This document shows, in pieces, positions 1 through 6,833 of a stretch of DNA of 6,833 nt. Every line of letters begins with the position of its first letter. The first letter of the stretch is position 1. The position numbers and the translations under genes were made by a program. Origin of the DNA: a virus (lineage: Duplodnaviria > Heunggongvirae > Uroviricota > Caudoviricetes); IMG/VR virus record IMGVR_UViG_2645727743_000001, positions 1-6,833 of that record; one strand, written 5' to 3'. Below the pieces are notes generated by a model. It did not search any database. It saw nothing but the letters and a program-made list of their open reading frames with translations, and had not been told where the DNA came from.

Positions 1-603
1 CAGAAGCAGAAAAAGCTTATTATGCTTCCATCGGAAACGATGATCTGGCAGCCTGAGTTCACAGATAAAACACTCTCCAGGAAACCCGGGGCGGTTCACG
101 GCGTAAAGATTTGTCATGTAATTATTTACGGTGACAGCCGATCTCCCCGGTTGCGTAACAATATAATTACTTTTGGGGATCTGGTATCCAGTAAGTAATT
201 CTTTACGTACCGCCAGCAATTTTTCTTTATTAATCGACGAGGCAAGATTTTTTTCACCGATTATGCTCAGAATATTTTTGATGACGGCACGGTACGTGTT
301 GAGTGACGTTTTTGCGACTTCCGTTTCTTTCAGTGCCAGAAATTTTTCAGCCAGTTCCTTTATGGTTAAATCTTGTCGGGCCTCACCAAATTTTTCCAGA
401 TTGTGTGAGGAGGGAAACTGTTTTGCATAGTCGAAAACACCAGTTTTTATTGCGTAACAAACAGAGGCGCGCAGCTCACCTGCAATGCGCCTGTTTTTTG
501 CCGTGTCAGGAACCCCAAGATTTTCCCTGATTCTTACACCTTTATAAACAAACCAGATACGTAATTTCCCTCCATGGTTTTCCACGCCTGTCGGATATTT
601 CAT
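1..603 (-). CDS. int: Tyrosine integrase, N-terminal portion only (start at 603, continues past the left edge of the window)
   Basis: Minus-strand frame is open from ATG (revcomp of 601-603) to position 1; it is absent from the ORF track because it has no stop in the window. Hand translation begins MKYPTGVENHGGKLRIWFVYKGVRIRENLGVPDTAKNRRIAGELRASVCYAIKTGVFDYAKQF..., which resembles the arm-binding N-terminus of lambdoid integrases (Rac IntR from memory starts MSKLPTGVEIRGRYIRIWF). It lies 35 nt downstream of xis on the same strand. Possible weak SD GAGAGAAG upstream. Residues encoded by about 1-105 look less integrase-like to me. Confidence 0.6.
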   Translation of the reverse strand, partial: MKYPTGVENHGGKLRIWFVYKGVRIRENLGVPDTAKNRRIAGELRASVCYAIKTGVFDYAKQFPSSHNLEKFGEARQDLTIKELAEKFLALKETEVAKTSLNTYRAVIKNILSIIGEKNLASSINKEKLLAVRKELLTGYQIPKSNYIVTQPGRSAVTVNNYMTNLYAVNRPGFPGECFICELRLPDHRFRWKHNKLFLLL

Positions 604-637: not shown

Positions 638-889
638 TCAGGTAAGATGACGTCTTGGTCTTGCAGGTGCCTGGCGCTCAATCCAGCGGTCAATTTCTTC
701 CAGGTTGTAAAAGCATGGGCTGTTATCCCATGGCATACAGTCATGGGCGACATGCCTATACTCCCTTCCTTCCATAAACGATTTTTCCCTGGCTTTTTTT
801 AGCGTTCCCTTTTTTATTCCTTTCAGTGCAATTAGCTGTTCTTCGGATACCCATTTACCGGGAGAGATAATCATGATTACTTCGCTCAT
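638..889 (-). CDS. xis: Excisionase (lambda Xis-like)
   Basis: 83-aa ORF MSEVIMIISPGKWVSEEQLIALKGIKKGTLKKAREKSFMEGREYRHVAHD... has the W...R...GREY pattern of lambda/HK022 Xis (lambda DGREYLFHESA, from memory) and sits immediately upstream of int on the same strand. The start is uncertain: ATG at 889 or the in-frame ATG at 874 (MIISPGKW...); both have weak SD. Confidence 0.6.
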   Translation of the reverse strand: MSEVIMIISPGKWVSEEQLIALKGIKKGTLKKAREKSFMEGREYRHVAHDCMPWDNSPCFYNLEEIDRWIERQAPARPRRHLT

Positions 890-958
890 CGCTTTTATCT
901 CTTACTTCAGATGAGCGCCGGTTGCAGAATACCAGTCACAACCGGCGGTGGTTGAACA

Positions 959-3439
959 TTAAAAATCAGCCTGACTCGGGATCAGTTTTTGTATCGTAGC
1001 TGTAACGTATTTTGCCTGGTGACGGGCGTCATCCAGTGCATTGTGGCGCACGCCTTCGAATGGAATAACGGTTCTGGCATCAAAGTCGATTGTTTTTCCC
1101 AGCTCAACGATTGTGCGTACATCGCGATCGTTGTGGTAGCGCCACGGGCAGGGGATGTCCAGACGTTCGTATGAGGTGCGCAAAATTGCGTTATCGAAAG
1201 TCGCACCATTACCCCATACCTGAACGAATTTTTCATCTGAGTATTCGTTGATGAACTCCCGAAACTGCGAAAGGGCATCCTTCAGTTTTACCTGGTCTGT
1301 TAAAATGGCAGCTCTGGCTTCACTGGACTGCTTCAGCCACCATTCGATGGTTCCACCGTCAGGAACAGCCCCTGTATTCATTGCGTCAGTCAGACTGATA
1401 ACGATATAAAATACTGGCCCGATTTCCCCTGTTTGTGGGTCGAAGAAAACCGCACCAATAACCACGATGGGCGCATTGGTGTTGGTTCCCATTGTTTCAA
1501 GGTCGATCATCAAGTGGTACCACACTCTGCTGGTGGATGTGATAACGTGATGACCGTTCACCGCAATTAAGGGATCTGCCGTCTCGCCAGTTTCATTATC
1601 GCTGGCGTGGTCCTGAGCGCTGCCAGCATTCTCCTTGTGTGGATGTTCAGCGCCTTCCATTTCCTCCGGATCATTTTCCTGAACTTCAACCCGATTCTCT
1701 TCATTGAATGTTTCCTGGTATGTTGCGTCGCCCATCACCGCGCCACAATCAGGGCAGTTGCCGCCGCCGGTCTGACCGCAGGCGGTGCAGATCTTTTCCG
1801 GTTCCTGTTGCACTACTGGTTCAGGTTGTTTCGTTTCTGGCTCATTTTGTAACGCATTTGGGCTGTTTTGTTCCGCTTTCTGGCCGTTCTGTTCCGTTTC
1901 TTGCTGGTTCTGGTTCACAGAATCGCGGGTTTCCATCCCCTTCACCCATTTCGGATCATTCGGATCGCTAATTCCTGCAACAAATTCACCACGTGATACT
2001 GCAAGCAGTTCATCGGCGTCAGGCTGGCTGATATTGGCTGCCTGCATAATGTTGTTTACTTCGTCAGCGGTAACTTTTACCGGCCCTGGTTGTGCGGTCG
2101 TGTCAGATGCACCAGTATTTTGTTGTGAACCTGAGTATGTACTGTTTTTGCGGACGAAATATTCTTCTTTCGTGATTTCAGTAGCCCCGGCAGCCAGTGC
2201 CTTATCCAGACCAGAAAGTTTGTTTGCGCGACCGTATTTTTCGCCATCCTTGTCGGTGAAGAGGAAGTAGAACGGCCCCTCACGCTCTACAGATGGTTCG
2301 ACTTCCACTTTGCATTCGGTTTTTTCGTTGTCCGGAATTGCCGTTTCCACTGCATCAGTTTCTGGTACTGGCGACGAGAGAGTATCAGTTGCGCTCTGAT
2401 TTGTTCCTTCATCTTCAAACACGCCCTTTGTAGTCAGGTATTCAGTAATGTATTTGTTCAGTGCCACAGGGTCTTTGTGAATGTCGATCGGACGTTCACG
2501 GACAAGGCCAAAAATAGTCTGGCGGTCGTAGCGAAGGGCATCAGGCTGTTTGCGCATTGATGCTGAGATACGCTTCCAGTCTTCGCGGTCGTTGTTGATA
2601 ACTTCATTTTTTGCCCAGCGATGGATGCTGCCGTCAATGTTTCCGGCATCAACATCACCAGGCCACAGAGCGTAGGCCAGTTCATCATCCAGTGTTTTCC
2701 ATGTCTGCTTATATTCGCGACGAATGACAGCAATGACAGGGGAGATATTTTCTGCTGAGTTTTCAGTGTGCTGTCGGTTGACTCTGGCGCGGGCGAGATC
2801 AACAGCAGACGTGTATTTTCCGGTTTCCTTGCGTTCACCTTCGCGACGTTTTTTCCAGATGCGCATCTCTGCCTGAATTTCGGGCCATTTAGCACCAGGC
2901 TTACATTTATGCTTAACCCACCCGATGGCATGCAACTTAAGCTCCGGATACATGGCGTTAACTTCTGGCATTTTCATCAACGCTTCAACGATATGGCCGT
3001 CGAATGTTGCCATGTCTTCCTGCAACAATTCCTGTGCACTAATCACCATATCAACGGTGATGTTTTCACATGTGTCGAACTTAACCATGACAGCGTTCTG
3101 TACTTCAGGGGCCAGCTTGTCAAAAGTGACGTTCATCGGATCGGATTCAGTCTCAACCGGGACAAAGGAAGCAGACTCCTCATCCCAGCGGTTTTCCTGC
3201 ATATATTCAGCATCCCAGGAATCGAGGGCAGGGCGGGGTATACCGGGTTTATCCTCGCAAACAAGAAATTTATAAGCGCAGTCCTGAGCAGCCGGATAAT
3301 GTTCCAGGAATTGCCAGTGAAATTTTGCGCGGGCGCGACGTTCATCACCGGCTTCAATGGCAGTGGCTACAGCGACGGCACCTTCTTCCTTTATTGCCTG
3401 TTCGTCCGGAATGGCGGCGCAAATAAAGACTTTACTCAT
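959..3439 (-). CDS. ydfE: YdfE-family prophage protein, full length, with C-terminal DEDDh 3'-5' exonuclease domain (often annotated exodeoxyribonuclease VIII in lambdoid prophages)
   Basis: 826-aa ORF with SD GAGGT 9 nt upstream of ATG at 3439. The N-terminus MSKVFICAAIPDE...AVAVATAIEAGDERRARAKFHWQFLEHYPAAQDCAYKF matches my recollection of K-12 YdfE. The C-terminus carries DEDDh motifs: MIDLETMG (Exo I), WGNGATFDNAIL (Exo II), HNALDDARHQAKY (Exo III). The central region has a CxxC-x7-CxxC zinc-ribbon-like motif (CTACGQTGGGNCPDCG), a Q/E/P-rich low-complexity linker and the RecE-like segment LLAVSRGEFVAGISDPNDPKWVKG. Confidence 0.85.
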   Translation of the reverse strand: MSKVFICAAIPDEQAIKEEGAVAVATAIEAGDERRARAKFHWQFLEHYPAAQDCAYKFLVCEDKPGIPRPALDSWDAEYMQENRWDEESASFVPVETESDPMNVTFDKLAPEVQNAVMVKFDTCENITVDMVISAQELLQEDMATFDGHIVEALMKMPEVNAMYPELKLHAIGWVKHKCKPGAKWPEIQAEMRIWKKRREGERKETGKYTSAVDLARARVNRQHTENSAENISPVIAVIRREYKQTWKTLDDELAYALWPGDVDAGNIDGSIHRWAKNEVINNDREDWKRISASMRKQPDALRYDRQTIFGLVRERPIDIHKDPVALNKYITEYLTTKGVFEDEGTNQSATDTLSSPVPETDAVETAIPDNEKTECKVEVEPSVEREGPFYFLFTDKDGEKYGRANKLSGLDKALAAGATEITKEEYFVRKNSTYSGSQQNTGASDTTAQPGPVKVTADEVNNIMQAANISQPDADELLAVSRGEFVAGISDPNDPKWVKGMETRDSVNQNQQETEQNGQKAEQNSPNALQNEPETKQPEPVVQQEPEKICTACGQTGGGNCPDCGAVMGDATYQETFNEENRVEVQENDPEEMEGAEHPHKENAGSAQDHASDNETGETADPLIAVNGHHVITSTSRVWYHLMIDLETMGTNTNAPIVVIGAVFFDPQTGEIGPVFYIVISLTDAMNTGAVPDGGTIEWWLKQSSEARAAILTDQVKLKDALSQFREFINEYSDEKFVQVWGNGATFDNAILRTSYERLDIPCPWRYHNDRDVRTIVELGKTIDFDARTVIPFEGVRHNALDDARHQAKYVTATIQKLIPSQADF

Positions 3440-3724: not shown

Positions 3725-3909
3725 TGCCAGTATCCTTTTTGCATCGGGCGTAAACGTGCCAGCATTGAAAGAATGCATATTTTATTTAATAGCTCCCGTT
3801 CGTGTTTTCTCTTATTAATGGCATCTTCAGTAAATACAGGGTTACTGATTCTGACACCAATTTCAAAACAACCTTCAGACGTATTGACGTTTGGTAATAA
3901 CGTTTCCAT
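3721..3909 (-). CDS. dicB: Cell division inhibitor DicB (MinC-activating, 62 aa)
   Basis: The ORF track gives 3721..4005, but the internal ATG at 3907-3909 has SD GAGGA 7 nt upstream. Product METLLPNVNTSEGCFEIGVRISNPVFTEDAINKRKHERELLNKICILSMLARLRPMQKGYWQ is 62 aa and matches my memory of DicB. It lies about 185 bp downstream of the DicF-like terminator, as in the K-12 dicB operon. Confidence 0.8.
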   Translation of the reverse strand: METLLPNVNTSEGCFEIGVRISNPVFTEDAINKRKHERELLNKICILSMLARLRPMQKGYWQ

Positions 3910-4092
3910 TATCGCGTCCTCAACAATGAATTTTGTGATGCGGTGCCTGGTGCCTCCAGGTGACGTTAACCAGTTAATAATTAACGCCGGATACAGAGAA
4001 CCCACCCATAAGAACCAATACGGAAGTCAACTGGCCTTTTTAACTGTTCCGCGTGCGCTGAGCCGCATTCACCGCATCACAAAATGCACTTT

Positions 4093-4150
4093 AAAAGGTG
4101 CGGGTATCATGGGAAAAACAAAACGGATACCCGCCAAAAGGTAATCAACA
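4093..4150 (-). ncRNA. dicF: DicF-like sRNA, divergent variant (boundaries approximate; 3' end set by hairpin plus U4)
   Basis: Minus-strand sequence TGTTGATTACCTTTTGGCGGGTATCCGTTTTGTTTTTCCCATGATACCCGCACCTTTT. It contains a 9-bp perfect stem (GCGGGTATC at 4134..4126 pairing with GATACCCGC at 4108..4100) followed by ACC and TTTT (4096..4093). It shares TTTGGCGG..TATC..GTTTT with the K-12 DicF sequence as I recall it, and sits in the expected position between ydfC and dicB. The 5' end is not determinable from sequence. Confidence 0.4.
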
Positions 4151-4480
4151 TGGGTTGTTGCAGCGGGGTTGTCACTCAGGCGTATGGTCAACCTGACAAC
4201 CCGGTGGACATTTGCGAGGAACGGAGAACCCCCGCCATACTTACCGCCGCGCCATTTCGCGGAGTGCCACAACCGGAAGCGCACGGTCGACGAAAATTTA
4301 ACGACAGGCTATCTATGAACCAACCACCTCGCCGTGCGCTTTCGCGTTATGCCCTGACTTTTCAGGGATATATTCTTTCTGTAAACTGTCAGTGCCGGAT
4401 ACTCACCCGTGTCCGGCGCACGCACTCCACCTCACCCGTGGAGAACTCCTTAATTACCAACCCTCAGGAGGGTGAAATTT

Positions 4481-5907: not shown

Positions 5908-5925
5908 TGAGAGGCAAGTGTTTTT

Positions 5926-5943
5926 TGTTAGATTGATCTAACA
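5926..5943. promoter_or_regulatory. Operator palindrome TGTTAGA-TTGA-TCTAACA (candidate DicA site controlling the ydfABC-dicF-dicB operon)
   Basis: Perfect 7-bp inverted arms with a 4-bp spacer, read directly from the sequence. Located in the 168-bp gap between the dicA stop (5980) and the ydfA-like start (5811). Confidence 0.6.
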
Positions 5944-5979
5944 AAAAGGGTGGGCGCAACTAATCACTTGAAAAGAATG

Positions 5980-6387
5980 TTATTTTATTGATTTATTTTT
6001 ACGCGCTTTAAGCATTTCTTCGAAGAGTTTGTTGAAGTTTTCTACTCTTGCGCGCATTTCAGACAGCAAGGCTTCCTGCTCGGAAGATGGAAGAGCATCG
6101 AATAATTCGATCAATTCTTTGTGGTTGGGAGTTAGCTCTGTTTCCACATGAAGTTCTTGTGCAGGCACTGGTGCCTTGTCTTCGTCACCAAACATTAGCC
6201 ATGTAGGTGAGCACTTCAGAGCATCCGCTAAAGCAAACAATCGTTTTCCGACTGGCTGGGTTTCGTCTCTTTCCCATTGTGAAATTGTGACGTGAGCAAC
6301 TCCAGCGAGGCGCGCAGCTTCTCGTTGTGTTAAGCGTAATTCTTTTCGTCGCGCCAGAACTCGCTGGCCTAGGGTTCTTGTATCCAT
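5980..6387 (-). CDS. dicA: HTH XRE-family repressor DicA (135 aa), the CI-like immunity repressor
   Basis: ORF MDTRTLGQRVLARRKELRLTQREAARLAGVAHVTISQWERDETQPVGKRLFALADALKCSPTWLMFGDEDK...EMRARVENFNKLFEEMLKARKNKSIK. It has the same length as K-12 DicA and shares CSPTWxxFGDEDK and EMRARVxNFNKLFEE with it (from memory). Divergent from the dicC-like gene. Weak or absent SD. Confidence 0.85.
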   Translation of the reverse strand: MDTRTLGQRVLARRKELRLTQREAARLAGVAHVTISQWERDETQPVGKRLFALADALKCSPTWLMFGDEDKAPVPAQELHVETELTPNHKELIELFDALPSSEQEALLSEMRARVENFNKLFEEMLKARKNKSIK

Positions 6388-6695: not shown

Positions 6696-6786
6696 ACAGG
6701 CTCGTGAGGCTCTGGATGCCTGGATATGTCGACCAGTAGACTGGCCCCCTGAATCTCCAGACAACCAGTATCACTTAAATAAGTGA
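6679..6786 (+). CDS. Short 35-aa ORF overlapping the dicC 3' end (possible remnant or small gene)
   Basis: ATG at 6679 to TGA at 6784-6786 gives [35 protein letters not shown]. It overlaps the dicC stop by 17 nt. No SD checked; could be a truncated ydfX/ydaT-like start. Confidence 0.2.
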
Positions 6787-6833
6787 TAGTCTTAATACTA
6801 GTTTTTAGACTAGTCATTGGAGAACAGATGATT

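Follow-up and report, generated by a model that had tools for sequence, protein, structure and literature searches.

The gap between an exonuclease gene and the excisionase gene xis of a lambdoid prophage contains a GC-rich hairpin that, judging from the pattern of substitutions among its relatives, is kept by selection as an RNA stem-loop on the minus-strand transcript. The DNA analyzed here is a single stretch of 6,833 nt (referred to as the window), in which the hairpin occupies bp 916-947 of the minus strand. Its most likely, though putative, role is to separate the stability or expression of the exonuclease message from that of the xis-int message. We tentatively propose that it does so as an intercistronic decay barrier, one that would make xis-int independent of the operon upstream. 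The searchable literature yielded no description of such an element at this site. It appears to be newly described and is well supported as a structure, although the kind of element to which it would belong is already known.

The hairpin is real. It is a perfect inverted repeat with plus-strand arms of 9 bp, CGCCGGTTG (bp 916-924) and CAACCGGCG (bp 939-947), that are 100% complementary and have 14 nt between them. On the minus-strand RNA, the 5' arm CGCCGGUUG (947-939) is followed by the loop (938-925) and then by the 3' arm CAACCGGCG (924-916); if U938 also pairs with G925, the stem has 10 bp and the loop 12 nt. The gap that holds the hairpin is 69 nt in length, from the exonuclease stop codon (959-961) to the xis ATG (887-889). 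The 9-bp perfect stem and the 69-bp gap given in a preliminary description of this DNA are both correct, but its end coordinate for the hairpin (946) is one base short of the true end at 947. Its loop of 12-13 nt is shorter than the 14 nt measured, and agrees at 12 nt if the minus-strand G.U pair is counted. The stem is separated from the exonuclease stop codon by a spacer at bp 948-958 (minus strand), in which TGTTCAACC (958-950) is nearly invariant in all relatives.

This inverted repeat is unlikely to be a product of chance. Perfect inverted repeats of at least 9 bp with loops of 3-20 nt number five in the window versus 0.4 in dinucleotide shuffles, and the probability of one such repeat within a shuffled 69-nt gap is P = 0.0026. 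With a folding energy of -17.4 kcal/mol, the hairpin ranks second in stability among 3397 minus-strand segments of 40 nt (mean -5.7, sd 3.25), and it is the only one of the ten most stable to sit in the exonuclease-xis gap, the others being within listed ORFs. The hairpin stands out less in a 91-nt fold around it, with z = -1.9 for the minus strand and z = -3.3 for the plus strand. Neither a terminator scan nor the sequence itself revealed a T-run after the stem on either strand. Three of the first 8 nt past the window's stem are T, and the scan reports no terminator, consistent with the preliminary finding that a U-run is absent.

The locus is the Qin-type dicB operon of a lambdoid prophage. 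In the nearest genome, the gene order is int, xisR, exonuclease, DUF1482, dicB, ydfC, ydfB, DUF1391, HTH repressor and cro, and the genes flanking the hairpin are all on the same strand. The "exonuclease" is an 826-aa protein encoded by an intact ydfE-type gene (bp 959-3439, minus strand; stop codon TAA, 961-959). Residues 642-814 at its C-terminus belong to the Rv2179c-like 3'-5' exoribonuclease family of Pfam, and no Pfam match was found in the first ~640 residues. This gene is commonly annotated as encoding "exodeoxyribonuclease VIII" or "exonuclease"; Pfam supports an exoribonuclease-type C-terminus only. On the other side of the hairpin are xis (bp 638-889, minus strand; ATG 889-887, Shine-Dalgarno sequence AAGAG 903-899), encoding an 83-aa DUF1233 excisionase, and the 5' part of int, encoding the arm-binding domain (bp 97-603, minus strand). 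The int gene is cut at ~97 by an IS3-family end. In E. coli K-12, IS2E replaces the equivalent of window bp 2673-482. The hairpin and xis are lost there together with the 3' part of the exonuclease gene and the 5' end of int, and what remains is the pseudogene ydfE. The label "ydfE-like" given earlier to the upstream gene is therefore appropriate, as K-12 ydfE is the IS2E-truncated 5' part of the 826-aa gene. Because K-12 is without the hairpin locus, K-12 data cannot inform on the hairpin.

Both ends of the window (bp 1-96 and ~6745-6833) resemble the ends of IS3-family elements. The best genome matches begin at bp 97 and stop at bp 6736, one match that covers bp 1-96 lists an IS3-family transposase, and the right end of the window has an IS-type terminal sequence followed by ATGATT. 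It is the resemblance of these ends to IS3-family ends that identifies int as truncated at ~97, and this prophage copy is probably unable to excise. Elsewhere in the window, a highly structured stretch (bp 3890-4350, minus strand) occupies the position of dicF in K-12, with perfect 9-bp inverted repeats at 4100-4134 and 4166-4202 and a 13-bp repeat at 4274-4344. Rfam gives a sub-threshold match to STnc100 at bp 3890-4096 (E-value: 0.00027, 32.6 bits versus a gathering score of 47) and does not call DicF in bp 3890-4350, where 19 nt alone resemble K-12 DicF. A perfect 12-bp AT-rich palindrome with a 2-nt centre (TTTTTGTTAGAT/ATCTAACAAAAA, bp 5922-5947) is found between the DUF1391 gene and the DicA-like repressor gene, the stop codon of which is at 5980, and may act as an operator or as a bidirectional terminator-like site.

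The comparison covered about 440 related loci. Among these were 199 loci with a conserved exonuclease 3' end, collected from IMG/VR (using the C-terminal domain and a 3'-end DNA motif) and from a few genome and phage records, and a further 160 gathered through their xis genes. Of the 199 loci collected by their exonuclease 3' end, 198 have the hairpin and share one order: the stop codon, TGTTCA(A/C)C, a GC-rich hairpin beginning 10-11 nt past the TAA and followed by no U-tract, and then xis. The single exception, L174, is without xis-int. The best 160 loci of close xis relatives all have both the exonuclease and the hairpin; no close xis relative without the exonuclease was identified among them, so the two are inseparable there. 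The element is also widespread. When a 131-nt query spanning the gap was compared with 5426 complete E. coli genomes, matches were found in 4090, which have the conserved exonuclease 3' end, and these extended over at least 80% of the query length in 2617, which have the exact junction.

The hairpins of these relatives have stems of 9-14 bp, stabilities of -16 to -23 kcal/mol and, in every type, a distance of 12-26 nt from the end of the stem to the xis start codon. They fall into two stem families. Family A, which includes the hairpin of the window, has the stem CGCC(G/A)GTTG ... CAAC(C/T)GGCG and a loop of 12-14 nt; the stems of family B-E are TGATCGCCGCC, GGTCGTCGCC or TGATCGCCGCTAAC, each with its complement, and the loops are 8-13 nt. 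Within a family, the loop hardly varies in its 3' half, which is UGGUAUUCUG in A and UAUA(G/U)U in B-E. Compared by eye, the loops of the two families share approximately 8 of 14 positions and the stems share nothing, and homology between them is not claimed.

The variation within each family preserves pairing. In family A (15 distinct sequences), 98% of cells are paired and one pair changes from G-C to A-U, with the G.U form also seen. In family B-E (22 distinct sequences), 93.8% of cells are paired; both positions have changed in four pairs and a single position in six, by way of G.U, with three mismatched cells at the two outermost pairs. None of 500 shuffles reached the covariation score of family B-E, and slid controls fell to 21-75% paired. 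Furthermore, the interior pairs of family B-E include 38 G.U cells versus one A.C cell, interior pairing in this family is 98.6% on the sense (minus) strand versus 81.8% on the antisense strand, and the sense fold is more stable than the antisense fold in 32 of the 37 variants. The G.U/A.C asymmetry and the compensatory changes point to a selected RNA structure in the exonuclease/xis sense transcript and not to a DNA palindrome. For family B-E, we estimate at least eight sense-compatible changes versus one or two antisense-compatible changes, although, given the close kinship of the sequences and the chance that recombination rather than mutation produced some intermediates, the independent events are modest in number. 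The compensatory changes and strand-specific G.U pairs agree with the placement of the hairpin on the minus-strand transcript in the preliminary description; the conservation on which that description had made its reading depend is likewise found, both in the retention of the hairpin at all but one of the 199 loci and in stems that keep their pairing.

The genes on both sides of the hairpin are mosaic. Downstream, there are six xis-int modules belonging to three protein lineages (A+E, A'+C and B+D). Hairpins of family A are found with modules A and A', and those of family B-E with modules B, C, D and E. Because both hairpin families are spread over shared protein lineages, hairpin type and module type assort independently. 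Upstream, identical exonuclease 3' ends are joined to different hairpins, with the junction to the different types falling right after TGTTCAACC (958-950). Three hybrid hairpins (L119, L073 and L036) have one arm of the G-C form and the other of the A-U form, producing A.C in L119 and G.U in L073 and L036, which indicates crossovers inside the 14-nt loop. From these comparisons, the hairpin is a short island with recombination junctions on both sides. It provides a clean natural case of an RNA structure that persists where mosaic modules meet, even as the modules on either side are exchanged, and is relevant to a long-standing question, namely whether modular phage evolution is guided by conserved linkers. 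A separate observation concerns the block formed by TGTTCAACC (950-958) and the last ~40 nt of the exonuclease gene, which shows hardly any variation, including at loci whose C-terminal 200 aa are no more than 72-74% identical. This block could be a recombination linker or an AU-rich single-stranded functional site, such as an RNase E site.

Although the GC-rich stem of the hairpin (9-14 bp, -16 to -23 kcal/mol) is suitable for an intrinsic terminator, the hairpin lacks the U-tract and the short loop (~3-8 nt) of this class. T residues make up 0-3 of the 8 nt after the stem across the six hairpin variants and the terminator scan is empty, so the earlier statement that this is not a typical intrinsic terminator applies to every variant. 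A full Rho-type end has a stable stem without U-rich sequence, as found here, but also a rut-like C-rich, G-poor region downstream. In all hairpin types the C/G ratio is 0.70-1.29 over the 80-120 nt past the stem and xis starts within 26 nt, and the full "Rho-dependent end" model does not fit for want of this region. The lambda retroregulation analogy drawn in the preliminary description fails, as the hairpin is upstream of xis and its stem is only 9-14 bp, versus the ~20 bp RNase III duplex of a lambda sib-type retroregulator. Classification as a dispersed REP/BIME repeat was rejected because the hairpin occurs at a median of one place per genome (maximum seven); among the ~60 of 4102 records listed, all hairpin matches are under exonuclease/excisionase genes. 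A palindromic DNA operator was rejected on the strand dependence of the conservation (98.6% versus 81.8% pairing). The promoter scan identified no minus-strand sigma-70 site in the window, and by inspection no usable -35 accompanies the TATTCT/TATAGT motifs of the loops. No Rfam family matched bp 900-960, even at E ≤ 1. The hairpin may belong to the class of intra-operon differential-decay structures, with which it shares a conserved RNA structure inside an operon, as seen from the covariation, the sense-strand G.U pairs and the same-strand genes.

The start of xis is predicted to be structured as well. In the minimum-energy fold, a helix at bp 863-902 (minus strand) sequesters the xis Shine-Dalgarno sequence by pairing it with xis codons 7-9: AGAGAUAA (902-895) pairs with UUAUCUCU (870-863), leaving the AUG in the loop. 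Relatives keep this helix via a U.G pair, and the predicted fold suggests that translation of xis is intrinsically low. In the 91-nt fold, an alternative helix of 7-8 bp over the xis AUG (GCGCUCAUC/GAUGAGCG, bp 883-917 of the minus strand, arms 883-890/910-917) abuts the hairpin. It was rejected as a stable element because longer folds of the window and of its relatives show the Shine-Dalgarno-sequestering helix instead. At the exonuclease stop codon, a TAATG stop/start overlap opens a mini-ORF (MFN...), which was rejected as a coding feature based on its variable length (7-46 codons) and unconserved stop.

In the mechanism that we propose, a polycistronic mRNA of the minus-strand dicB operon would run through the exonuclease gene into xis-int, carrying the hairpin. 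The start of the stem, 10-11 nt past the stop codon, is probably just beyond the reach of a terminating ribosome, a distance that we estimate from ribosome footprint size. From this position, the hairpin would block 3'-to-5' exonucleases degrading the downstream xis-int segment, such that the upstream message would outlive xis-int. It may also serve as a protective 5' structure following cleavage in the AU-rich spacer UUUUUAAUGUU. Acting with the Shine-Dalgarno-sequestering helix, it would keep the Xis/Int dose low relative to that of the upstream early genes. A stem past a stop codon, without a U-tract or rut, inside an operon, before low-dose genes and under RNA-level selection best fits a decay barrier, and its shared position among two unrelated stem families and six xis-int modules is also in favour of this function. 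Of the readings offered in the preliminary description, that of a "processing or stability element" is in our analysis the most likely. Four features stand against a decay barrier. First, a simple barrier would not explain the large loops (8-14 nt) and their conserved 3' halves. Second, there are tightly packed relatives without any hairpin. Third, no rut-like C-rich region comes after the stem. Fourth, canonical terminators at the equivalent position in lambda and in a Lelliottia prophage point to transcription rather than decay.

These terminators make an attenuator a serious rival, even if an unlikely one. As a weak or factor-assisted attenuator, and the U-tract-less counterpart of the terminators found there, the hairpin would pause or terminate some RNA polymerases before xis and so insulate xis-int. 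The lambda terminator is 33 nt upstream of xis (predicted terminator t5, PMC4195576) and that of Lelliottia is right before the xis Shine-Dalgarno sequence; the hairpin likewise has a GC-rich stem, directly past a stop codon. However, none of the six variants has more than 3 T in the 8 nt after the stem (range 0-3), the 8-14 nt loops exceed those usual for terminators, the terminator scan is empty and the downstream sequence shows no rut-like skew. Termination in E. coli is also inefficient at hairpins that lack a U-tract, a further point against an attenuator.

It is doubtful that the hairpin is instead a protein or RNA binding site that is read via its conserved loop and regulates xis-int or the operon, with the adjacent exoribonuclease-type product as candidate partner. 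Although the loop hardly varies in its 3' half within a family and the upstream gene with the Rv2179c-like exoribonuclease domain always accompanies the hairpin, there is no known motif or Rfam match, the two families differ in their loops, and the close kinship of the sequences means that loop conservation may be mere inheritance. In addition, distant homologues of the exonuclease are without the hairpin. More doubtful still is a translational insulator or standby site that would uncouple xis translation from ribosomes ending the exonuclease gene, or would shape the folding of the xis ribosome-binding site. Such a site would be well placed, with the stem ending 12-26 nt before the xis start in every type, the Shine-Dalgarno-sequestering helix coming next and the TAATG overlap at the exonuclease stop codon; on the other hand, the mini-ORF ranges from 7 to 46 codons without a conserved stop, and the xis initiation regions are wholly different among the six modules, yet the hairpin is common to them. 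Equally improbable is a DNA-level feature or passenger without RNA function (a palindromic protein site, or a homologous linker for recombination of integration modules), since the homology breaks on both sides of the hairpin, its independence of xis-int type and the loop crossovers of the hybrids are offset by strand asymmetry (G.U versus A.C) and compensatory changes that are unexpected for a double-stranded DNA palindrome or a neutral linker.

The decay barrier reading can be extended, more speculatively and with little confidence, to a portable, strand-specific "module boundary" RNA. Such an RNA would stop 3'-to-5' decay at the exonuclease/xis border, with the Rv2179c-like exoribonuclease of the prophage itself as a possible agent of that decay. 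In doing so, it would determine the dose of Xis/Int and how often excision occurs, while the same conserved island would serve as a linker for swaps of integration modules among lambdoid prophages. The genes that come immediately after the hairpin are those on which prophage excision depends. Were the hairpin to set the Xis/Int dose, Qin/Rac-type and related prophages, those of O157 strains among them, would have their stability and mobility altered. The hairpin does not overturn current understanding, and its function is putative.

Hairpins before xis are found in other prophages, where from the loci compared they appear to be recurrent but not universal, the sample from other genera being anecdotal. 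In the Rac prophage of K-12, an independent 9-bp hairpin with a U.G pair and no U-tract (GGCGUCAAU-11 nt-AUUGGCGCC) is found between rcbA and xisR, directly before the xisR Shine-Dalgarno sequence (L208 bp 1970-1998; NC_000913.3 ~1413469-1413497, minus strand). Nothing was found at this analogous Rac xisR site in K-12 3'-end data (PMC7815308 supplement). In other genera, the genes upstream of DUF1233 xis homologues differ and the gap is variable: in Silvania, a 7-bp hairpin with no U-tract is directly against the Shine-Dalgarno sequence, Cronobacter has a structured 80-nt gap before xis, and two tightly packed loci have no hairpin. Distant homologues of the exonuclease (ST64B, mEp460 and epsilon34), of which those of ST64B and mEp460 are stand-alone and next to xis, are followed by gaps of 9-24 nt with at most a 4-6 bp hairpin.

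In lambda, GCCGCC-TGAT-GGCGG followed by T6 is found 33 nt upstream of xis and just upstream of TTGC-N6-TTGC repeats, which we take to be the CII boxes of pI. In the Lelliottia prophage (xis 70% identical), GCCGCC-N6-GGCGG followed by T6 is right before the xis Shine-Dalgarno sequence. Like these terminators, the hairpin described here places a GC-rich stem between the last upstream gene and the xis ribosome-binding site, but their loops are 4-6 nt and T6 follows, versus a loop of 12-14 nt here and six variants that all lack a T-tract. Lambda sib is similar in that an RNA structure is proposed to control int/xis post-transcriptionally. Sib itself is a long substrate for RNase III found downstream of int on the far side of attP, and integration parts it from int; in contrast, this hairpin precedes xis, stays linked to it upon integration and has a stem of only 9-14 bp. 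The REP stabilisers in malEFG are intra-operon protective structures, but REP elements are dispersed genomic repeats and the hairpin, in the records listed, is confined to the prophage exonuclease-xis context.

The closest parallels are with structures described in E. coli by Dar and Sorek (2018). Stable stem-loops without a U-tract protect the ends of Rho-dependent transcripts (PMC6061677), and the hairpin resembles these in being a stable stem-loop with no uridine-rich tail just past a coding region. There, a rut site comes directly after the stem-loop and the 3' ends have been mapped, whereas the hairpin is followed by xis within 26 nt and by no C-rich, G-poor stretch. In the same organism, conserved intra-operon structures reshape operon stoichiometry by differential decay (PMC5927463). 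These are mostly within coding regions, whereas the hairpin is intercistronic and its role in differential decay is putative; like them, it is conserved, is inside a polycistronic message and borders segments that are expected to need different doses.
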